A stretch of 64,000 bases of DNA, from assembly GCA_964629655.1 (NCBI GenBank), contig CAZVQU010000002.1, forward strand, positions 298,840 to 362,839, read 5' to 3'. The number at the start of each line of letters is the position of its first letter. Positions within the stretch are counted from its first letter, which is position 1. This DNA is from an uncultured Planctomycetia bacterium. Its GTDB lineage: Bacteria; Omnitrophota; Gorgyraeia; Duberdicusellales; 4484-171. The notes under the pieces are model-generated. The model was given only the letters and a program-made list of their open reading frames with translations, had not been told where the DNA came from and made no database searches. The translations under genes were made by a program, and so were the position numbers. Below, one piece after another: positions 1,585-57,154 of the stretch.

Positions 1585-2868
<1,284 letters not shown>

Positions 2869-37523: not shown

Positions 37524-38462
37524 CTATTGATCAAAAAGTACGCTTATCGACTTCTCAAAGTGGATTCTCTTTATTGCTTCAGCAAAAAGGCTGTCTACCG
37601 AGACAACTTTTACCTTCTTAGACTTCTTATTCTTACCTAAAGGAATAGAGTCAGTAATTATCAAAGAATCAATACAAGACTTATCTATCTTACCAACAGC
37701 ATTGTTAGATAATATACCATGAGTAATCGCGGCAAATATCTTCTTTGCTCCGGCATTCTTCAAGGCTTTAGCTGCCTCAGTTAGAGAAGAACCAGTAGCA
37801 ACTATATCGTCAACCATAATAACATTCTTGCCCTTGACCTCACCTAATATATTCATGACCTCTGTAGACTCGGGGGTATTTCTTCTTTTGTCAACAATTG
37901 CTAATCCCGCTTTAAATCGCTTAGCATAGGCACGAGCCATCTTTATCCCGCCAACATCAGGAGAAACAATTACTAAGTTATTGGTCTTTGATTTCTTAAA
38001 ATAATCAACTATGGTATTAATCCCATAGAGATGATCCACCGGGATATCAAAGAAACCTTGAATCTGACCAGCGTGCAAATCTAAAGTTAAAACTCTATTT
38101 GCTCCCGCTCCATATAAAATATTAGCTACCAGTTTAGCAGTAATAGGGACCCTGGGTTGATCCTTGCGGTCCTGTCGGGCATAACCAAAGTAAGGAATTA
38201 CTGCGGTTATTCTAGAAGCCGAGGCTCTGCGTAAAGCATCAAGGATAATCAACAACTCTGTTAAATTCTCATTTACCGGCGGACAAGTAGGTTGAATAAT
38301 AAAAACATCTTTGCCTCTTACATTCTCGTGGACTTTTACTCCAATCTCTCCGTCACTAAAACGAGAGACAGTTAATTTTCCCAGTTCAACATTCAAGCTC
38401 TTAGAAATCTTCTTGGCTAATTCCCTATTGGCCGTCCCGCTAAAAACTATCATCTTATCCAT
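37524..38462 (-). CDS. prs: ribose-phosphate pyrophosphokinase
   Basis: 312 aa. PRPP-binding motif VIMVDDIVATGSSL. Prs N-terminal domain. Confidence 0.9.
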   Translation of the reverse strand: MDKMIVFSGTANRELAKKISKSLNVELGKLTVSRFSDGEIGVKVHENVRGKDVFIIQPTCPPVNENLTELLIILDALRRASASRITAVIPYFGYARQDRKDQPRVPITAKLVANILYGAGANRVLTLDLHAGQIQGFFDIPVDHLYGINTIVDYFKKSKTNNLVIVSPDVGGIKMARAYAKRFKAGLAIVDKRRNTPESTEVMNILGEVKGKNVIMVDDIVATGSSLTEAAKALKNAGAKKIFAAITHGILSNNAVGKIDKSCIDSLIITDSIPLGKNKKSKKVKVVSVDSLFAEAIKRIHFEKSISVLFDQ

Positions 38463-39804: not shown

Positions 39805-39879
39805 TGGTTGCCCGGCCTGGACTCGAACCAGGAAACTCAGCTCCAAAAGCTGATGTGTTACCGATTACACTACCGGGCA
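39805..39879 (-). tRNA. tRNA-Gln (anticodon TTG)
   Basis: Reverse complement reads TGCCCGGTAGTGTAATCGGTAACACATCAGCTTTTGGAGCTGAG...CCTGGTTCGAGTCCAGGCCGGGCAACCA. It has the anticodon loop CT-TTG-GA, a T-arm GGTTCGAGTCC and an encoded CCA end. Confidence 0.85.
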
Positions 39880-39936: not shown

Positions 39937-40362
39937 CTACTCTCTCTCGTTTCCTTCCCCTGCTGCAGCCTCTTCCTTGGCAGGCTTTTCCCTCGGCGAT
40001 GCCTTCTCATCATGGTAAGCATCTAAAACCTTACTTTGTAGGTAATCGCGAAATTCCTGGTTGATAGGATGTGCTAAATCTTGATGAGTGGTGTGCCGGC
40101 TGTCTTCTGACTCCCTAGGAGGAGGAGGTAATTGCACTCCGCAATGGTTACAGTACTGGCTGCCAACATCAACCTTCTTGCCGCAACGAGGACAAAATTG
40201 CTTCAACTTCCTTGCTGGCATCGCAACAAATAAACCATTGTTACCTTCAATAACCTTGATGTTTCTTACCACAAAGGAGTTATCAAAGGTGATTGTTGCA
40301 TAAGCCTTAAGTCTCTTGCCCTCACTTTCTCGAAGAGAAACTCTGACTTCCGTGATCTCCAT
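39937..40362 (-). CDS. spoVG: SpoVG-family protein with inserted zinc-ribbon and acidic/Pro-rich C-terminal extension
   Basis: 141 aa. MEITEVRVSL...GNNGLFVAMPARK and DLAHPINQEFRDYLQSKVLDAY match SpoVG. Between them, CPRCGKKVDVGSQYCNHCG (C-x2-C-x10-C-x2-C) is inserted where B. subtilis SpoVG has a short loop. Confidence 0.75.
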   Translation of the reverse strand: MEITEVRVSLRESEGKRLKAYATITFDNSFVVRNIKVIEGNNGLFVAMPARKLKQFCPRCGKKVDVGSQYCNHCGVQLPPPPRESEDSRHTTHQDLAHPINQEFRDYLQSKVLDAYHDEKASPREKPAKEEAAAGEGNERE

Positions 40363-44120: not shown

Positions 44121-44996
44121 TCAATAGATGACCTTATTTAAAGGGTACTCAATTATTCCTTGAGCTCCATTTTCCTTTAATAAAGGTAAAATTTTACGTA
44201 CCTGGCTCTCTTCGACAATAACCTCACAAGCAACCCAGTTCTTTACGGTCAGGTGAGAAATTGTTGGCTTCTTTAATGCTGGAAGAATAGATAAAACCTT
44301 ATCTACATTCTCCTTCCTAACATTTAGCTTAAGGCCAACTTTAGCTCTAGCTTCCAAGGCCCCTTTTAGAAGCAGCAAAACCTGCTGCATTTTTTTCTTC
44401 TTCCACTTATTTTTATAAGAAGACTTATTGGCAATAAACTGAGTAGTGGAAGTACATACCGTATCAATTATCTTTAAGCCGTTGGCTCGCAGGCTTGCGC
44501 CAGTCTCGGTAAGCTCAACTATTGCATCAACTAGACCACTTTTTACCTTAACTTCAGTAGCACCCCAACTAAACTCTACGTCTAGGTCTATCTTTTTAGC
44601 TTTAAAAAATCTCTTAGTATACTTTAATAGCTCTGTGGCTACCCGTTTGCCTTTTAAATCCTTCAATTTCTTTATTCGGGAATCCTCTCTTACTGCAACT
44701 ACCCACCTTACCGGATTAAGCGTCTGCTTAGCGTAAGGCAGCTGAGACAATTTCAGAACACTTGAGCCATTCTCTAAAATCCAATCTTCACCGGTAATGC
44801 CGCAGTCTAAGACCCCTTCTTCAACGTAGCGAGACATCTCCTGAGCCCGGATAAGCACAACTTTAATCTCAACATCATCAATAGAAGGGAAATATGACCG
44901 TGAGCTTAGGTAAATATTGAAACCAGCCATACGGAAAAGTTCTAAGGTCTTCTCCTGCAGGCTCCCCTTGGGTATTCCTAATTTTAATGTCATCAT
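44121..44996 (-). CDS. hisG: ATP phosphoribosyltransferase (long form)
   Basis: 291 aa. [12 protein letters not shown]...[13 protein letters not shown]-terminal regulatory domain. No other his genes adjacent. Confidence 0.8.
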
Positions 44997-45283
44997 ATAT
45001 ACTCCTTAAAGAAACAAATTATACAATGCCCATATTGACTTGTAAAGGGAAATATTAAGCCAGTCATATAAATGAATTGAAAACGATTTCAGGAAATGGT
45101 TCACAACCCCTTGAAAGACAAGTAAAAAGGATGTTATGCTTTAATAAGGATTCCTTTCTAGGGATCAAATGCCACGGGCCCTCTCCCTTTTAGGGAGGGG
45201 GTTTCTTTTAAAATGAAAATAGCGCTTCCACCTTAGCAGATAAAAGCGCTATTATCTTTCTAGTACTTAAACTCTAAAATACC

Positions 45284-46732
45284 CTATTTTACCTCTTGAA
45301 CGGTTGAACAACACTCGCCCCCGCATCCTGATTCTTGCGGACATTGGCCGGTCCAACAATAGAGACAAAGCTCATTCTTAGGCAAACCAATAGCCTCAAC
45401 CATATCACCCACAGTTTGATATCTAAGGGTAGTAACTCCCAAGTCTTTAGCGATCCACTTTATCATCTTTTTATACTTTTCAGAGTTACAATCGGTGTAT
45501 TCAGAGACATCTTCTAAATCATGGCCCTCAATACTGCGGATAGCTTTTCTGGCAGCAAGTTCATCAATGCTGCGAGTAGACAGATTAAACCGGCAAGGAA
45601 ACATCAAGGGCGGACAAGCCGGCCTTACGTGGACTTCCTTAGCGCCAGAATCCCAAAGCTTCTTTACGGTAAAATTCTTAAGCTGGGTTCCCCTGACTAT
45701 CGAATCATCACAAACAATAATTTTATTGCCTTCGATTATCTCCTTTATAGGAATAAGTTTCATCTTGGCAACCAAATCACGTGTCTCTTGAGAAGGCGGA
45801 GTATAGCTTCTTCCATACCCCGGGGTATATTTTATTAGTGGTCGCCGATAAGGGCTACCGCTCTCCATAGCATACCCTATAGCATGAGCAGTCCCTGAAT
45901 CAGGAACCCCGGAAACTACATCTACACTAATATCTTTATCATGCTTAGCCAAGGCCCGTCCGCATCTCTCTCTTACCACCTCGGTATTGATTCCTTCATA
46001 GCTTGAGGCAGGAAAGCCTGTATAAATCCACAAGAAGGCACAAATTTGTTTTATGCCTCTACCGGGCTTTTTTTGATTCATGCCTTTTTCGTTTATTAGA
46101 ACTATTTCGCCGGGCTCTAAACACTTAACTACTTTAAAATCGCTATTAGGAAAAGCACAGGTTTCAGAAGTAACAGCCACGGCATCACTGCGTTTTCCGA
46201 CTATAAGAGGAGTGTAGCCAAGCCTATCCCTAGCAGCATAAACTCCATCTTTATGCAGCAATAGCAGCGAACAAGAACCCCTAATCTGATCAAACATTTT
46301 CTCAATACCATCTATTAAATCACTACCCTGGCTTATGAGCTTTGCTATAAGTTCTGCGTCGTTGACCTCGCCTTTGCTTACCTCAGCAAAAGATACTCCT
46401 TCTCTAAAAAGGCCTGCTATTAACTCTGACTTATTTTCAATAAATCCATTGGTAACTACACAAAAAGGACCAAACTTAGAGTTTAAATATATCGGTTGCT
46501 CTTCGGAGGCGCTGATAACACCAATACCTTTGTTACCTCTCATGTGCTGATAATCATCATAGAATTTTGACTTAAATTGACTCTGAGATATCTTGTGTAT
46601 CTGCCGTTTGAATCCATCACCAAGAACTGCCATGCCTCCATACTCAGTTCCTAGATGGGAGTGATAATCGGTACAATAAAACAGGGTATCTACGCAATCT
46701 TTCTTCGAAACTACACCAAAAATTCCGCTCAT
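45284..46732 (-). CDS. amidophosphoribosyltransferase-like protein (class II GATase + PRTase) with Ser replacing the N-terminal catalytic Cys and a Cys-rich C-terminal tail
   Basis: 482 aa. Starts MSGIFGV (RBS GGAGGT 7 nt upstream), where PurF has MCGI(V/F)G. GNKGIGVISASEEQPIYLNS aligns to PurF GNMGIGHVRY...SEAQPFYVNS. PRPP-binding loop IIVCDDSIVRGTQLK. The C-terminus CLYCWTGQCPQESGCGGECC is unlike canonical PurF. Confidence 0.7.
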   Translation of the reverse strand: MSGIFGVVSKKDCVDTLFYCTDYHSHLGTEYGGMAVLGDGFKRQIHKISQSQFKSKFYDDYQHMRGNKGIGVISASEEQPIYLNSKFGPFCVVTNGFIENKSELIAGLFREGVSFAEVSKGEVNDAELIAKLISQGSDLIDGIEKMFDQIRGSCSLLLLHKDGVYAARDRLGYTPLIVGKRSDAVAVTSETCAFPNSDFKVVKCLEPGEIVLINEKGMNQKKPGRGIKQICAFLWIYTGFPASSYEGINTEVVRERCGRALAKHDKDISVDVVSGVPDSGTAHAIGYAMESGSPYRRPLIKYTPGYGRSYTPPSQETRDLVAKMKLIPIKEIIEGNKIIVCDDSIVRGTQLKNFTVKKLWDSGAKEVHVRPACPPLMFPCRFNLSTRSIDELAARKAIRSIEGHDLEDVSEYTDCNSEKYKKMIKWIAKDLGVTTLRYQTVGDMVEAIGLPKNELCLYCWTGQCPQESGCGGECCSTVQEVK

Positions 46733-46804
46733 TTTATGACCTCCACTTTTTGGGAACGGTTCTCTAACCTAAATGCACCCTAGCAAGCAGGAAACTGTAT
46801 CCTA

Positions 46805-48328
46805 TTACGCTACAAAAAGACTCTTGGAAGAAAAGTTTGGTTCACTGGTAAGATTAACCCCTAGCTTACGCAACCCAGCTTCATCGCCCGGCGTAGGCAT
46901 ATGAGTTGCATGTACCTCACATCCTCCAAGTTCCTTAAGTTTCTCCATAGCCAATTGAGACGTTGGATTAGTAGTCGCACTAATGCTTAAGGCAATTAAA
47001 GCCTCTTCTAAATCTAAGCTTATTGTTTTAGTACCAGAAAGACCTTTCTTTAACTTTCCTATTGACTCTATTATTGTCGGCGATAAGAGATGGATCTTAT
47101 CCGGAATCTCTGCTAGCTCTTTTATAGCATTAAGAACCAGGCTAGCTGTTGCATGCATAAGATTGGAATTCTTCCCGGTAACTATCTTACCACTTTTAAG
47201 CTCGATAGCCACACCGCAAAAAACCCCACCATGCCCTTTCTTCTTATCTTGGGCCTCGCCAAGAGCATCATTTGCTGGTTTAACAACACAACGATCCTCA
47301 GGCTTAAGGTTTAGCTCTTCCATAAGTTCTTCTATCCGCTCAACTGTTCCCTTATCACTGAAACCCATTGCATATTCACATCTATATCTAAAAAATCTAC
47401 GAATGATCTCCTGTTTTGCTTCGCTCCTAACTGCAGCATCGTCCACAATTCCAAAACCGGCTCTATTTACCCCCATATCAGTAGGAGATTTATATATTGA
47501 TTCGGCTCCGGTAATCTTTTCTAAAATCCGCTCAACAAGAGGAAAAGCATCAACATCTCGATTATAGTTGATCGCTGTCTCCTTGTAAGTCTCTAAGTGA
47601 AAGGGGTCAACAAGGTTGAAATCTCGTAAATCTGCTGTTGCTGCCTCATAAGCTACATTAACCGGATGTTTAAGAGGAATATTCCAAATCGGAAAGGTCT
47701 CAAACTTCGCATAGCCTGCTTTTACTCCTCTTTTGTACTCATGATAGAGCTGACAAAGACAAGTGGCAAGTTTTCCGCTTCCCGGCCCAGGACCGGTAAC
47801 TACAACCAGAGGCTTGTCAGTCTCAATATAAGTATTCACACCATAGCCGGCATCACTTACGATTGAATCCACATCTGCAGGATAACCCTTGGTAAATGAA
47901 TGGGTATAAACCTTTATGTTCCTGCGTTCTAATTTATTTTTAAAGATTTTAGCTGAAGTTTGATTATCGAAACGAGTTATTACCACTGCTGCTATGTTAA
48001 TATCCCAACTTCTTAGGTCATCAATCAATTTTAAAGCATCAACATCATAGGTAATACCAAAATCAGCCCTAACTTTTCTTCTTTCAATATCGCCGGCATA
48101 TATGCAAAGAATAATGTCAGCTTTATCTTTAAGCTTCTGCAAAAGCCTCATCTTTACATTAGGGTCAAATCCTGGCAAGACTCTTGAAGCATGGTAATCA
48201 AAGACAATCTTACCACCGAATTCAAGGTAGAGCTTATTGTCAAACCTCTCGACTCGCTCTAATATGGCTTTGGTTTGCTCTTTGAGATATTTTTCATTAT
48301 CAAAGCCTAACCGCTTAGCCATTATCAC
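46805..48328 (-). CDS. UPF0371 / DUF1846 family protein
   Basis: 507 aa. [62 protein letters not shown] and SPTDMGVN closely match remembered UPF0371 proteins of Firmicutes. Confidence 0.75.
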
Positions 48329-51300
48329 CCTCCTTTATTTCTTTATGGTATTCCTGAAGAGATTTTGGTGAGATTTTCTTCCCCCTCAATGCTTCAATCC
48401 CTTCAAGGCTGGCTTGGGCGGCAGCCATAGATGTAATGTAAGGAATCTTCTGTTGAATAGCCATAATACGAATATAACTATCATCGTATTTACTATTACT
48501 ACCAATAGGTGTATTTATAATTAGATGGATATCTCCATTTTTAATCGCATCAGAAAGGTTAGGCCTCCCTTCATGGAGCTTCTTTACTTCGGTACTATCT
48601 ATGCTGTTTTCTTTAAGGAAGTTACTAGTTTTTTCGGTAGCGTAAATGTTAAAACCAAGCTTATCAAACCCCTTAGCTATACGGATTAACTCCGGCTTAT
48701 CCTTGTCGGTTACAGTAAGCAGAACATTTCCCTCTGTAGGAAGCTTTAAATTTGCAGCTAATTGAGCTTTATAAAAAGCAAGCCCAAAAGTATCAGCAAT
48801 GCCCATTACCTCTCCGGTGGCCCTCATTTCAGGACCTAGCAGAGGGTCTACCTCAGGAAACATATTAAAGGGAAAAACTGCTTCTTTAACCCCGATATAA
48901 GGAACTTTGTGAGACTTTTGGAGCTCGGGAAAATCTTTCAGCTTCTTACCGAGCATCAGTTGGGTTGCAATTCGAGCCATAGAAACTGCCATAATCTTTG
49001 AAACTAAAGGTACTGTTCGAGATGCTCTAGGATTAGCTTCTAAAATATATACCTTGTCATCGCAGATAGCATACTGAACATTTATCAACCCAACAACTTT
49101 AAGCTCCTTTGCAATTTTAACGGTATAATCATCAATGACCTTTAGGTGCTCTTCCTTGATAGTCCTGGTTGGAATTACACAGGCAGAATCACCAGAGTGA
49201 ACTCCGGCAAGCTCTATGTGCTCCATTACCGCGATAACACGAGCATTCTCTCCATCAGCAAGAGCATCAACTTCAGCTTCGATAGCATGTTCTAGGAATC
49301 TATCAATAAGCATAGGAAATTCCGGACTTACCTTGATAGCTTCCTCAGCATACTTTCGTAATACTATCTCATTGTAGATAATTTTCATACCCCGGCCGCC
49401 TAAGACAAAAGAAGGGCGAACCATAAGAGGATATCCTATTTTATTAGCAATTTTTACAGCCTCATCCAATGACCGAGCCGTACCGCTCTCAGGTTGAGGG
49501 ATACCAAGAGCAATCATCCTCTCTCTGAAGTATTCCCTATCTTCTGCCAAACGGATACTTTCTGGTGAAGTGCCCAAAATATTTACTCCGTTATCCTTTA
49601 GCTGTTGGGCAATGTTTAAAGGCGTTTGTCCGCCAAACTGAACGATAACTCCCTCGGGCTTCTCTTTCTCATAAATAGTCAATACATCTTCCACCGTCAA
49701 CGGCTCAAAGTAGAGCTTATTAGATGTATCATAGTCAGTAGATACTGTCTCAGGGTTACAATTTACCATAACTGACTCATAGCCTTCATCCCGCAAGGCA
49801 AAGGCTGCGTGAACGCAAGTATAATCAAACTCTATTCCCTGGCCAATCCGGTTAGGCCCGCCACCTAAGATTAATATCTTCTTATTCGGTGATACCGACA
49901 CCTTATCTTCTCCGATATATGTTGAGTAATAGTAAGCTGCGTTTTCTACTCCGCTAACCGGAACTACATCATAGCATTCGATCTTCCCAAGAGCTAATCT
50001 CTTTTCTCTTACTTGTTTTTCTTTTACCATAAAGATCTCAGCTAAATATTTATCTGAAAACCCTAATTCCTTTGCTTTAATTAACTTATCATCAGGTAAA
50101 TCTTCCCATTTATTCTTAATTATCTCCTCTTCAAAATCAACTAACTCCTTCATCTCGTTAAGAAACCAAGGATGAATATAAGTAACTTTGTAGAGCTCTT
50201 CGACTGAAATCCCTCTACGCAAAGCCTCATATATTAAAAATATACGCTCACTTGAAGGCGTACCTAATTTCCCTTTTAATTTTTCTATCGGAAGGGCTTT
50301 GAATTTCTCAACCCCTAATCCAGCCCGACCTATTTCTAAGGAGCGAATTGCCTTCTGAAAAGACTCTTTGAATGTTTTTCCTATGCTCATTACCTCACCA
50401 ACTGCCTTCATCTGAGTTCCTAAGATATCTTTTGCCTTAGGAAACTTCTCAAAGGCCCAGCGGGCAAACTTAATAACCACATAGTCGCCGCTAGGTGCAT
50501 ACTTCTCCAAAGTCCCTTCTTTCCAATAAGGAATCTCATCCATTGATAATCCGGCAGCTAACTTTGTTGAAATACGAGCGATTGGAAAACCGGTTGCCTT
50601 TGAAGCTAGAGCTGAGGAACGAGATGTCCTGGGATTAATCTCAATAACTACTATCCGGTCATCCTTAGGGTTATGGGCAAATTGAATATTAGTCCCGCCA
50701 ACAACACCAATTGCATCTACTATACGGTAAGAGTAAACTTGTAATTTATCTTGTATTTCTTTTTTTACGGTAAGCATTGGGGCGGAACAAAAGCTATCTC
50801 CGGTATGAATGCCCATCGCATCAATATTTTCGATAAAGCATACGGTAATCTTCGCATTTTTGTGATCGCGCACAACTTCCAACTCTAGTTCTTCCCAACC
50901 AATGACTGCTTCCTCAACTAAGACTTGATGAACAAGGCTTACTGATAATCCCCGAGTAACAATGACCCTTAGTTCTTCTACATTATAGGCGATTCCGCCA
51001 CCGGTTCCTCCCATTGTATAAGCTGGACGCAATACTACCGGATAGCCTATTCTTGCAGCTATCGCTTCAGCCTCTTCAACTGAATGGCTAATTTCAGATT
51101 CAGGAAGAGGGATATCTAACTTCTTCATTGTCTCTTTAAAAACAAGACGATCTTCTCCGCGTTCAATAGCATCAGCTTTAACACCAATAATCTTAACTCC
51201 ATACTTCTTCAAGATGCCAGAGCTATGGAGACTCGAAGACAAATTAAGACCAGTTTGACCTCCCAAGTTAGGAAGAAGAGCGTCAGGTCTTTCTTTCTCA

Positions 51301-51533
51301 ATAATCTTCTCCAAACTCTCAACATTAAGAGGCTCAATGTAAGTTTTATCAGCCATTCCAGGATCAGTCATAATAGTTGCCGGATTAGAGTTAACCAAAA
51401 CAACCTCATATCCCTCCTCTTTTAAAGCTTTACAGGCTTGGGTCCCAGAATAATCAAACTCACAGGCTTGCCCAATGATAATTGGCCCGGAACCAATGAT
51501 CAAAACTTTTTTAATGTCTTCGTACCTCGGCAT
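48315..51533 (-). CDS. carB: carbamoyl-phosphate synthase large subunit
   Basis: 1072 aa. Duplicated ATP-grasp halves. Begins [30 protein letters not shown]. Has a C-terminal MGS-like domain. Strong RBS GGAGGAGG. No carA immediately upstream. Confidence 0.9.
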
Positions 51534-51619: not shown

Positions 51620-51665
51620 AAAATAGAAAAAGCGTCCCTTCACTTCATTGTTAGCAAAGGGACGC
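51620..51665 (-). terminator. intrinsic-terminator-like hairpin in the carB 5' leader (candidate attenuator)
   Basis: On the minus strand GGCGTCCCTT-(17-nt loop)-AAGGGACGC forms a perfect 9-bp stem, followed by TTTTTCTATTTTT. It lies ~90-130 nt upstream of the carB ATG and just downstream of a TTGACT-17-GATAAT promoter-like element (~51702-51674). Confidence 0.5.
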
Positions 51666-51819
51666 CTTTATCCACATTGGAAATGATTATCCAACAAATT
51701 TGGCTAATAGTCAAGAAAAAAAATAATAAAAAATAGCCTTTTTTTATCTACAAAAACCCTTGAAAAGACTAGTATTTATAAGCATTTTTGCATAGTGTAA
51801 AAGAAACTAAAGAAAATGC

Positions 51820-51910: not shown

Positions 51911-53446
51911 ATGGAACAAGAATATTTCAGCCCAACCCAAGCCGCTAAAATTTTAGGGATATCTCGTCAAGCAGTCATTGAGCGTATAAAACATGGGGCT
52001 CTTTATGCTGAAAGGGTAGGGAAGAGATATATAATCCCTAGAAACCAACTTCCAGAGGAAGGAGCTCTCCCCGGTAAAAAGGAAACTAAAATAAGTATTT
52101 CTTCAAGCAGTAAGAAGAATCGCAAGGAGGCAATACGAAAAGTCTTAGAAACAGTACATAAGGAAAGTATAAGAACTATCCAGTTATGGTTTGTAGATAT
52201 CTTAGGAACCTTGAAATGCGTTTCTATTACACAAGGTGAGTTAAAGGGCGCCTTGGAACATGGTAAAGGGTTTGATGGTTCTTCTGTTACTGGTTTTGCC
52301 GAAGCTGAAGAAAGTGACATCCTTGCTCTACCTGATCCCAGTACATTCAAAGTATTACCTTGGACAGTTGAAACTGATCCTACTGCCAGAATGCTCTGTG
52401 ATATACTGAATCCGGATCACACTCCTTATGCAGGGGATACTCGTTATGTTCTAAAACGTGCATTGGCCCGAGCAAAGAGAAACGGTTTTACCTTTTATAT
52501 CGGTCCCGAGATAGAATACTTCTACTTTAAATCTGATCGCAAACCTGAAGTAATAGATGAGGGTTCCTACTTTGAACTAATACCTAATGATTTAGCTAAT
52601 ACTTTAAGAAACAAAACTATAAGAACTCTAGAAGAGATGGGTATACCTATGGAAGCAACACATCATGAGGTAGCGCCTTCACAGCATGAGATTGACCTCC
52701 AGTATAATGATGCCCTTACTATGGCTGATAGCGTAATAACCTGTAAATATGTAATTAAGGAAATCGCCCAGCAAAGTGGTGTATATGCAACCTTTATGCC
52801 TAAACCTCTATTTGGAGTAAATGGTTCAGGGATGCATGTTCACCAGTCTCTATTTAAAGGAAAACAAAACGCCTTCTTTGACAAGAAGGATAAACACCAT
52901 CTATCCTCTATCGCTAAAGGATTTATTGCCGGTGAGCTTAAACATGCCCGGGAGATATCCTCCCTGACTGCTCAGTGGGTAAACTCCTATAAGCGTCTGG
53001 TTACCGGATATGAAGCGCCAGTCTATGCTTCTTGGGCGAGTAAGAACCGTACAGCTCTGCTTCGGGTTCCGGTGTACCGAATAGGTAATGAAAAAGCAAC
53101 CCGGGTAGAATTGCGTTGTCCTGATCCGGCCTGCAACCCTTATCTAGCTTTTGCGGTAATGTTGGCAGCAGGCTTAGAGGGTATAGAGAAAAAATACCCG
53201 TTACCTGCGGTAGTTGAGCCTAATATCTATCGCATGGCTATGGAAGAGCGGGAAAGAAGGGGCTTGACCTCGCTTCCCGGAAATCTCTTTGAAGCTATTG
53301 TTGAAACAGAAAAGAGTGATTTTGTACGAGAAACTTTAGGAGACCATATCTTCAATAGATTTTTGTTTAATAAGAAAAAGGAATGGGAAGATTACCGAAT
53401 GCAGATTACCCAATATGAAATAAAAAAGTATCTTCCTATGCTCTAA
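51911..53446 (+). CDS. glnA: glutamine synthetase type I fused to an N-terminal excisionase/MerR-like HTH DNA-binding domain
   Basis: 511 aa. Residues ~5-50 (FSPTQAAKILGISRQAVIERIKHGALYAERVGKRYIIPRNQL) look like an HTH_17/excisionase-type domain. The remainder is GS-I (beta-grasp + catalytic domain, with the NPYLAFAVMLAAGLEGI motif). RBS AAGGAGG. Confidence 0.85.
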   Translation: MEQEYFSPTQAAKILGISRQAVIERIKHGALYAERVGKRYIIPRNQLPEEGALPGKKETKISISSSSKKNRKEAIRKVLETVHKESIRTIQLWFVDILGTLKCVSITQGELKGALEHGKGFDGSSVTGFAEAEESDILALPDPSTFKVLPWTVETDPTARMLCDILNPDHTPYAGDTRYVLKRALARAKRNGFTFYIGPEIEYFYFKSDRKPEVIDEGSYFELIPNDLANTLRNKTIRTLEEMGIPMEATHHEVAPSQHEIDLQYNDALTMADSVITCKYVIKEIAQQSGVYATFMPKPLFGVNGSGMHVHQSLFKGKQNAFFDKKDKHHLSSIAKGFIAGELKHAREISSLTAQWVNSYKRLVTGYEAPVYASWASKNRTALLRVPVYRIGNEKATRVELRCPDPACNPYLAFAVMLAAGLEGIEKKYPLPAVVEPNIYRMAMEERERRGLTSLPGNLFEAIVETEKSDFVRETLGDHIFNRFLFNKKKEWEDYRMQITQYEIKKYLPML

Positions 53447-53538: not shown

Positions 53539-56323
<2,785 letters not shown>

Positions 56324-56327
<4 letters not shown>

Positions 56328-57154
56328 AGCTTGTAAAGGTTACAAATATGTTTCTCTTTATCCTCGTACACCTTGTTTCTCTTAATCAACTCATCCCAAT
56401 CGATTAAAGAAGCATCAAATTCCGGGCCGTCAATACAGGTAAATTTAGCCTTACCATCTACAGTAACCCGGCAACCACCACACATGCCAGTAGCATCAAT
56501 CATCAAAGAATTTAAAGAGACTAATGTCTTTACTCCTGAATCCTTAGTAACCAAAGACACATTCTTCATCATCGGGATAGGGCCAACAGCATAAATAAGG
56601 TCGTATTTTTCTCTCCCGATAAGCTCCTTTAATATGGTTGTAGTAAACCCTTTTTGGCCATAAGAACCATCATCAGTAGCAATGAACAGTTGATCAGATG
56701 CAGTTTTCAACTCCTCTTCCAAAATTAACAGGTCTCTTGTCCTTGCTCCTAATATCGTAGTTAGATGATTTCCCGCAGACTTCAACTCCCTTGCTGCCGG
56801 ATAAATCTCAGCAATGCCGACTCCTCCACCTACCAGGATTACTTTTCCGTATTTTTTTATCTCAGTATGATGCCCTAAGGGACCTACTATGGCATAAATA
56901 GATTTTCCCTTATCTAGCTTGCCGAGAAGCTTAGTGGTTAAACCTACCTCTTGGATAATTAAGGTAATAGTGCCGGCTCTAGTGTCCTTCTCAACTACAG
57001 TCAAAGGCACCCTCTCTCCCTCCTCAACCACCATTACAATCACGAATTGGCCCGGTTTTGCTTTCTTGGCAATCAAAGGAGCTATTACCTCTAATTGGGT
57101 AATTTTTACCCCTGAACCATCAACTAAAATCTTTTTCTCTACTATTTCTGCCAT
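56324..57154 (-). CDS. PyrK-like FAD/[2Fe-2S] electron-transfer subunit (NfnA/SudB-type partner of the GltD-like subunit)
   Basis: 276 aa. Ferredoxin-NADP-reductase-like fold motifs and C-terminal Cys cluster (CGGCRV...C). Overlaps the GltD-like gene by 4 nt. Confidence 0.7.

Follow-up and report, generated by a model that had tools for sequence, protein, structure and literature searches.

PurF (EC 2.4.2.14) catalyzes the first, committed step of purine synthesis, which is under heavy regulation, and is a textbook case of ammonia channelling from an N-terminal nucleophile (Ntn) glutaminase domain. Ammonia- and glutamine-dependent isozymes of the same step are known as pairs elsewhere in metabolism, as in AsnA/AsnB and in the NH3-dependent and glutamine-dependent forms of NadE. 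Here we analyze a PurF-like protein lacking the catalytic Cys, hereafter PurF', which is encoded in a 64,000-nucleotide stretch (the window) of contig CAZVQU010000002.1, from an uncultured bacterium assigned to Omnitrophota in GTDB. The gene purF' lies at positions 45284–46732 of the minus strand and codes for 482 amino acids starting with MSGIFGV. On balance, the sequence comparisons lead us to regard PurF' as a probable glutamine-independent, ammonia-dependent isozyme of the phosphoribosyl pyrophosphate (PRPP) amidotransferase. AsnA and the NH3-dependent NadE have no glutaminase domain, whereas PurF' keeps the whole domain with the catalytic residues replaced; a large family has thus retained the entire two-domain PurF yet dropped the glutaminase chemistry.

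Cys-less paralogs of PurF have been noted in archaea since 2011, and the protein of the window is a variant of a known enzyme. In Crenarchaeota, PurF paralogs (also named PurF') have Ala or Val replacing the N-terminal Cys, and Mlab_0150 of Methanocorpusculum labreanum has a Ser at this place (Brown et al. 2011, PMC3261824). The archaeal genes neighbor canonical purF and further pur genes, and a role of their products as ammonia-dependent PRPP aminotransferases was put forward as an untested hypothesis (PMC3261824). According to the same work, Mlab_0150 arose recently by duplication of the local purF, and it therefore probably represents an independent loss of the Cys. The window protein resembles these paralogs in being Cys-less, and its family has members in Asgard archaea that lie beside canonical purF (loci L031, L036, and L038). 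The likeness to the crenarchaeal paralogs is one of description. Adjacency to canonical purF or other pur genes, the other mark of the archaeal paralogs, is seen in family members of other genomes, and the 64-kb window contains no canonical purF. The bacterial family, the alternation of Ser and Gly at the former nucleophile position, and the linkage with carB and DUF1846/PyrJ are not described in PMC3261824. In the literature that could be covered, which is incomplete, Brown et al. is the only relevant report: we found no characterized Cys-less bacterial PurF, and neither a description nor a test of the bacterial family, of its Ser/Gly alternation, or of its operon link to PyrJ and carB.

Two other described systems bear on the function of PurF'. 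As summarized in PMC3261824, mutants of Escherichia coli PurF at Cys1 lose the glutamine-dependent activity but keep the NH3-dependent one (Mei and Zalkin 1989), and an ammonia-dependent PRPP step is therefore feasible. PyrJ, the DUF1846 protein Spd_0310 of Streptococcus pneumoniae, is reported to convert uridine triphosphate into cytidine triphosphate with ammonia and not with glutamine, to be synthetically lethal with pyrG, and to work alongside the glutamine-dependent PyrG (bioRxiv 10.1101/2024.09.24.614635). PurF' would follow the same logic of a glutamine-independent isozyme that coexists with the amidotransferase version, and a homolog of PyrJ is encoded by the next gene upstream. The fold of PyrJ is unrelated, however, and its activity is demonstrated, whereas PurF' is a degenerate amidotransferase whose activity we infer.

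The open reading frame (ORF) of purF' begins MSGIFGVV. Its first two codons are ATG AGC, of which AGC (46727–46729, minus strand) codes for Ser2, where PurF has its catalytic Cys1, and a GGAGG ribosome-binding site (46740–46744, minus strand) stands 7 nt 5′ of the ATG. These observations confirm those of an earlier note on this DNA, which had described a PurF-like protein with Ser in place of Cys1 and with a good ribosome-binding site. Upstream of the ATG there is an in-frame stop at 13 codons, with no other start in between and no propeptide containing a Cys. The closest 120 homologs, which are 76–90% identical and come from Omnitrophota and Planctomycetota (Phycisphaerae, Sedimentisphaerales), all start with MSG; hence, orthologs with Cys at position 1, which the note had named as a refutation of its view, were not found among the close relatives.

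Public records label the gene as amidophosphoribosyltransferase, and the family is uniformly so annotated; the assembly index has no exact entry for the window protein. On the PurF equivalog model TIGR01134, the window protein scores 222.7 bits, where the curated cut-off is 350. The model separates PurF' from canonical PurF: seven further members of the family reach 151–229 bits, against 480–521 bits for three canonical PurFs encoded next to purF'. The best relative with a solved structure is the [4Fe-4S] PurF of Bacillus subtilis (1ao0; E = 1.5e-56). An AlphaFold model computed from an alignment of 22 sequences (predicted local distance difference test [pLDDT] 92, predicted template modeling [TM] score 0.90) superposes both domains on 1ao0 in Foldseek (TM scores 0.81/0.85, E = 1e-40, 30% identity). 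PurF' is thus predicted to have the two-domain fold of PurF, with an N-terminal Ntn (class II glutaminase–like) domain at residues 2–230 (46043–46729, minus strand) and a phosphoribosyltransferase (PRTase) domain at residues 231–465 (45338–46042, minus strand).

The two halves of the protein differ sharply when the residues of the phmmer alignment are transferred to the numbering of B. subtilis PurF. In the glutamine site, Cys1 is Ser2, Arg26 is Leu27 (the neighboring Gly being kept), Arg72 is Ser74, and Tyr73 is Ala75; Asn102-Gly103 and Asp127 are kept in the window protein as Asn95-Gly96 and Asp125. The nucleophile is absent, and of the residues for glutamine binding and coupling Arg26, Arg72, and Tyr73 are replaced. 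The same holds across the family, where position 2 is Gly, Ser, Thr, or Ala, Arg26 is replaced by Leu, Arg72 by Ser, and Tyr73 by Ala or Asp, and where the equivalents of the oxyanion Asn and of Asp127 vary. In the transferase half, Lys305, Arg311, and Asp345/346 are found as Lys301, Arg308, and Asp342/343. The PRPP-binding loop (residues 338–350; 45683–45721, minus strand) reads IIVCDDSIVRGTQ and aligns with VVMVDDSIVRGTT of 1ao0, in agreement with the earlier note, which had called it recognizable, and the flexible loop reads LIKYTPGYGRSYTPPSQETRD. Hence, the type I PRTase domain is in place, with a counterpart of the canonical PRPP loop (DDSIVRGT) and with the flexible-loop Lys and Arg; the loop, Lys301, and Arg308 are invariant in the family alignment. 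The four Cys ligands of the B. subtilis cluster (Cys236, Cys382, Cys437, and Cys440) align with Cys231, Cys380, Cys456, and Cys459, which predicts a [4Fe-4S] cluster; the CxxC pair of these ligands is the CLYC of positions 45356–45367 (minus strand). PurF' therefore shares with the B. subtilis enzyme (1ao0/1gph) the fold, the PRPP loop, the flexible-loop residues, the cluster ligands, and the CxxC(W/F)TG motif, and differs from it by the lack of an N-terminal Cys and of a propeptide, by the replacement of Arg26, Arg72, and Tyr73, by DYHSHLGT in the place of QHRGQ, and by a PRPP loop that ends in Gln and not in Thr.

The wider family was defined by an exhaustive search of the representatives of 50%-identity clusters. 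Its members have an N-terminus of the form M-[S/G/T/A]-G-x-F-G, DYHSHLGT where canonical PurF has LQHRGQ, and G(V/I)ISD where canonical PurF has GHVRY. Scanning species-representative genomes with the family peptide [YF]G[TV]DY[HN]SH[LM] gives at least 600 matches. Those listed come from Planctomycetota, Omnitrophota, Spirochaetota, Elusimicrobiota, Desulfobacterota, Acidobacteriota, Gemmatimonadota, Clostridia, and Asgard archaea, from gut Bacteroidales (Prevotella, Parabacteroides, and Paramuribaculum intestinale DSM 100749), and from Lentisphaerota (Oligosphaera ethanolica and Victivallis). The carriers belong mostly to anaerobic phyla. In a rough neighbor-joining tree the DYHSH proteins form one clade, apart from the PurFs with Cys1 and QHRGQ, and the Cys-less family is apparently monophyletic. 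The earlier note had asked whether the Ser variant forms a clade, and both the family search and the tree place the window protein in such a Cys-less clade. The tree contains at least two further groups of Cys-less PurF-like proteins, one with the pattern MAGLxGLS...FYQQHLGE...YCG and another that keeps LQHRGQ with Gly at the Cys position (representatives P0201, P0207, P0222, P0224, P0233, P0243, P0245, P0254, and P0266; P0188, P0200, P0216, and P0228). Their existence implies either that the nucleophile was lost repeatedly or that the diversification is early.

Within the family, the former nucleophile position alternates between small residues. Among the 72 species-representative loci with a readable start, it is Gly in 37 and Ser in 35, and the cluster representatives have Gly (30), Ser (18), Thr (3), Ala (1), and Lys (1). 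The second codon tells the same story: in loci L001–L086 Ser is always encoded by AGY (35/35) and every Gly by GGN, each of which is one first-base change away from the TGY of Cys and from the other. Ser, Gly, Thr, and Ala at position 2 all permit the removal of the initiator Met. The Ser-type relatives at 46–64% identity retain neither the oxyanion Asn nor the equivalent of Asp127 (Asn95 and Asp125 in the window protein). Because Gly is as frequent as Ser, and because the other residues of the glutamine site are lost or variable, the comparison indicates that Ser is one of several acceptable small residues and not a replacement nucleophile. The special significance that the earlier note implied for the Ser itself is thus not borne out, as Gly is just as common there and Thr or Ala also occurs.

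The loss of the glutaminase residues is not accompanied by a decay of the domain. Across 22 aligned, diverse members (35–63% identical to the window protein), the invariant positions of the PRTase domain are Lys301, Arg308, Ser309, Arg318, Lys325, Asp343, Ser344, Arg347, and Gln350; the cluster ligands Cys231, Cys380, and Cys459 are also invariant, and Cys456 is nearly so. The N-terminal domain has its own near-invariant positions, namely Gly3, Gly6, Asp22, Tyr23, His26, His46, Phe53, Phe57, Ser74, Gln79, Pro80, and Asn100. The ratio of the mean pairwise identity in the N-terminal domain to that in the PRTase domain is 0.87 among the diverse PurF' members and 0.91 in the close clade; canonical PurFs give a value of 0.88, whether compared within Omnitrophota or across diverse representatives. 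These values indicate that the N-terminal domain of PurF' is not decaying and is retained under selection.

The genomic context was compared by clustering the ORFs of 86 fetched loci and of the window (87 loci). The neighbors found are carB (10 loci), DUF1846 (9), canonical purF (8–9), purM (6), an aminotransferase (6), and purL (5–6). A neighborhood conserved over the whole family was rejected as weak, since even the best neighbor, carB, occurs in only 10 of the 87 loci. Canonical purF, with Cys, QHRGQ, and GHVRY, is adjacent or one gene off in L003, L008, and L009 (Planctomycetota, in the order purF-purM-purF'), and it adjoins purF' in L019 (Omnitrophota, purL-purQ-purF-purF'-purM), in L035 (Anaerolineae), and in the three Asgard loci mentioned above. 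In L003 the canonical neighbor reads VSEKKESCGLFGIFG...QHRGQ...GHVRY...CTACWTGKYP. In two other Omnitrophota, L024 and L025, the pur operon has the order purB-purL-(LOG-like)-[purQ]-purF'-purM...purD-purE, the genes being named by eye from their N-terminal sequence and length. No canonical purF is found within 10 kb of purF' in these two loci, and PurF' stands in the expected purF slot. In Paramuribaculum intestinale (L072), purF' directly follows purL. PurF' thus shares with canonical PurF an association with purL, purM, and purD, and the family is linked to the initial reaction of purine synthesis; its members are usually a second PurF, and some may be the only one. Just 5′ of purQ/purF' in these Omnitrophota operons there is a LOG/TIGR00730-like gene of about 225 amino acids with a DPWRVF motif, also identified by eye (L024, 4734–5426; L025, 9269–9940).

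Another recurrent association links purF' to DUF1846 and carB. There are 9 loci, all from Omnitrophota or Planctomycetota, with DUF1846 next to purF'. For carB the number is 10, spread over Omnitrophota, Spirochaetota, Desulfobacterota, and Lentisphaerota, and at least 9 of them have no carA-sized gene beside carB. Besides the window, carB is found next to purF' in L016, L032, L066, L071, L084, and L085; in L085 purF' is immediately 5′ of carB, the usual place of carA. The order carB-DUF1846-purF'-hisG of the window is also found in a related metagenome-assembled genome of Omnitrophota (L001).

In the window, purF' is the last of three genes on the minus strand. The first is carB (48315–51533), coding for a carbamoyl-phosphate synthase large subunit of 1072 amino acids with the full architecture of this subunit. 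The second is the homolog of pyrJ, a DUF1846/UPF0371 gene (46805–48328) whose product scores 555.6 bits with Pfam DUF1846 and 182.1 bits with DUF1846_C, and matches over its full length PDB 7f00, the S. pneumoniae SPD_0310 homolog (E = 8e-152). Its likely start is the ATG at 48322, behind an AGGAGG, and its 8-nt overlap with the carB stop suggests translational coupling. The gene purF' follows 72 nt 3′ of it. No carA is seen among the approximately 30 ORFs scanned with Pfam in the partly annotated window, and none lies beside carB. A tblastn search of the 64 kb with PurF' retrieves only itself; hence there is no second PurF homolog in the window. Beyond the window, the contigs matched by a canonical PurF of Omnitrophota and those carrying purF' were compared by length and showed none in common, which tells little about canonical purF in this lineage. 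The operon therefore unites three amination enzymes of nucleotide pathways, each without a working glutaminase partner in cis. Upstream of the unit are glnA, gdh, and an nfnAB-like pair, and downstream are hisG, in its long form (44121–44996, minus strand), and, 7 kb further, prs (37524–38462, minus strand); this is a neighborhood devoted to ammonia assimilation and PRPP use.

The earlier note had suggested an ammonia-dependent or otherwise repurposed paralog, and this is the reading that the sequence data best support. In the mechanism that we propose, the C-terminal PRTase domain would bind PRPP and Mg by means of its intact PRPP loop, flexible-loop Lys and Arg, and [4Fe-4S] scaffold. Free NH3 would then displace pyrophosphate to give 5-phosphoribosylamine (PRA), the product of PurF, with no hydrolysis of glutamine. 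The formation of PRA from PRPP is inferred from the conserved PRTase residues and from the placement of purF' in pur operons. The Ntn domain would probably serve as a lid or channel closing over the PRPP site, and as the port of entry of ammonia. The bulky or charged Cys1, Arg26, Arg72, and Tyr73 are exchanged for the small or neutral Ser/Gly, Leu, Ser, and Ala/Asp, and the former glutamine pocket could have become the entry to the ammonia channel. Position 2 would then need only a small residue, consistent with the Ser, Gly, Thr, and Ala that are seen there and that let the Met be removed. The carB-pyrJ-purF' unit has the look of a glutamine-sparing module because purF' is co-transcribed with a carB without adjacent carA and with a PyrJ-type gene, beside gdh, glnA, and nfnAB-like genes; it might be part of an ammonia-fed nucleotide module for ammonia-rich anoxic habitats. 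If PurF' is such an isozyme, purine synthesis in anaerobes should figure in metabolic reconstructions as partly independent of glutamine, the operon would be an example of a compact glutamine-sparing nucleotide pathway, and the family would be a natural experiment on the roles of glutaminase domains beyond glutamine hydrolysis.

Several observations fit less easily with an ammonia-dependent isozyme. The N-terminal domain is as conserved as in active PurF and has near-invariant motifs of its own (DYHSHLGT, GIGVISD, and QP). A passive lid might not require so much, which hints at an additional function. The PRPP loop has at its end an invariant Gln in PurF' and a Thr in PurF, and this could signal altered binding of substrate or effector. 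Most of the 86 loci have no pur, carB, or DUF1846 neighbor. The pur operons that carry purF' also hold purQ, a glutaminase, so the organisms of L024 and L025 have not dropped glutamine-dependent steps. Finally, no biochemical data on any member of the family were found in the literature searched.

Some of these same features favor an alternative in which PurF' would be an active PRPP-dependent transferase with another nitrogen donor (such as carbamate, the carbamoyl phosphate of CarB, or another amide) or acceptor, or with a product other than PRA; the remodeled N-terminal domain might then capture or release NH3 from such a donor. Selection on the N-terminal domain matches in strength that on a functional glutaminase domain, Asp22, Tyr23, His26, His46, Ser74, Gln79, and Pro80 are kept family-wide around the old active site, and the Thr to Gln change in the PRPP loop is invariant; moreover, the adjacency of carB and purF' without carA recurs in four phyla, and genes that consume (hisG) and make (prs) PRPP are nearby. 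Yet the Ntn position has no conserved nucleophile and is occupied by Gly in half of the members, PRA as the product agrees with the placement in pur operons, and carB is adjacent in only 10 of the 87 loci. The idea is speculative, we know of no precedent for it, and we hold it to be doubtful. Slightly more doubtful is its elaboration, in which the N-terminal domain would have gained a new nitrogen-supplying role, either capturing and deprotonating ammonium or releasing NH3 from a donor other than glutamine (carbamate, or the carbamoyl phosphate of the CarA-less CarB), and would pass it through the old channel to PRPP; with PyrJ, it would then form a dedicated module for glutamine-independent nucleotide synthesis that is widespread in anaerobes. 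A similarly unlikely explanation is that PurF' is a noncatalytic, regulatory subunit that forms hetero-tetramers with canonical PurF and tunes its activity or feedback inhibition, as pseudo-enzyme paralogs do. PurF is an oligomer, a canonical purF with Cys1 is adjacent or one gene off in 8–9 loci of Planctomycetota, Omnitrophota, Anaerolineae, and Asgard archaea, and the N-terminal domain is strongly conserved in spite of the loss of its catalytic residues. A regulatory subunit would, however, have no need for the invariant catalytic residues of the PRPP loop and of the flexible loop; furthermore, in L024 and L025 PurF' takes the place of purF and a canonical copy is absent from the vicinity, and in the window purF' is transcribed with carB and pyrJ and not with purF.

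It is far less probable that Ser2 acts as the N-terminal nucleophile, as Ser1 does in Ntn hydrolases of the penicillin acylase type, and that the enzyme is still a glutamine amidotransferase. Ser, Thr, and Cys all serve as nucleophiles in Ntn hydrolases, the window protein keeps Asn95/Gly96 of the oxyanion hole and Asp125, the equivalent of the ligand of the glutamine α-amino group, and the close clade has no exception to Ser. One would expect such a nucleophile and its oxyanion hole to be conserved together in a Ser/Thr-type Ntn hydrolase, but Ser alternates with Gly (37 of the 72 species-level loci) and with Ala and Thr, and the Ser-type relatives at 46–64% identity keep neither Asn95 nor Asp125. 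Moreover, Arg72, the ligand of the glutamine carboxylate, is Ser and Arg26 is Leu family-wide, and the C1S mutant of E. coli PurF is without glutamine-dependent activity, as cited in PMC3261824. An error of sequencing or assembly, which the earlier note had raised since AGC and TGC are one base apart, can be dismissed for practical purposes, and so can a decaying pseudogene. The MSG start of the 120 homologs, the absence of Cys from the whole family, the AGY codons of all 35 Ser in independent assemblies, and the concerted change of several other residues of the glutamine site all speak against them, as do the intact ORF, the strong ribosome-binding site, and the confident full-length fold. 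The upstream stop, together with the ribosome-binding site and the homologs, also rules out an alternative start.

The earlier note had further quoted the C-terminus CLYCWTGQCPQESGCGGECC as unlike canonical PurF. This is incorrect for its first part, CLYCWTG, which aligns with the canonical CLACFTG iron-sulfur motif of B. subtilis PurF (C437/C440), and correct for the stretch that follows, QCPQESGCGGECCSTVQEVK. In the C-terminal tail (45287–45355, minus strand), WTGQCPQESGCGGECCSTVQEVK, the extra Cys464 (in GxCP) is kept in 119 of the 120 closest homologs, and the remainder is variable. One extra tail Cys is found in 83 of these homologs, two in 22, and three or more in 14; in the wider family, the tail is mostly without extra Cys. 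A conserved second metal site in the tail was rejected as a feature of the family, as the Cys are sporadic and the segment is predicted to be disordered (pLDDT < 50 at residues 467–482). The last approximately 18 residues are probably a lineage-specific, disordered appendage and not a defining feature of PurF'.

Around the operon, the signals of transcription come from a consensus scan only. A terminator-like hairpin of 16 pairs followed by a T-run (45218–45253, minus strand), 31 nt 3′ of the purF' stop, is the likely end of the carB-pyrJ-purF' transcript, and hisG has its own promoter-like site. On the 5′ side of carB (51628–51714, minus strand), a promoter-like site (51714–51686) precedes a 17-bp hairpin with a T-run (51669–51628), a possible leader or attenuator. 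An Rfam scan gives no riboswitch or leader family in the operon, the only hit being a tRNA at 39808–39879. Farther away, the window contains purA (1585–2841, minus strand). Given purA and prs, the organism makes PRPP and converts at least inosine monophosphate to adenosine monophosphate; purA aside, no further de novo pur gene is seen in the partly annotated 64 kb.

Three neighboring genes have features of their own. The glutamine synthetase (51911–53446, plus strand) carries at residues 5–47 an N-terminal DNA-binding domain of the MerR/excisionase type (HTH_17). This unusual fusion of enzyme and regulator is also found in L001 (3172–4707). At 53539–57154 (minus strand), an NfnA-like protein (276 amino acids, with DHODB Fe-S/NAD-binding domains) and an NfnB/GltD-like protein (473 amino acids) are encoded directly upstream of the glutamate dehydrogenase (467 amino acids), and the pair looks like an NADPH-supplying unit for ammonia assimilation by this enzyme. 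The SpoVG homolog (39937–40362, minus strand) has a zinc-ribbon insertion within the SpoVG domain, at residues 56–75, which is also present in L001.

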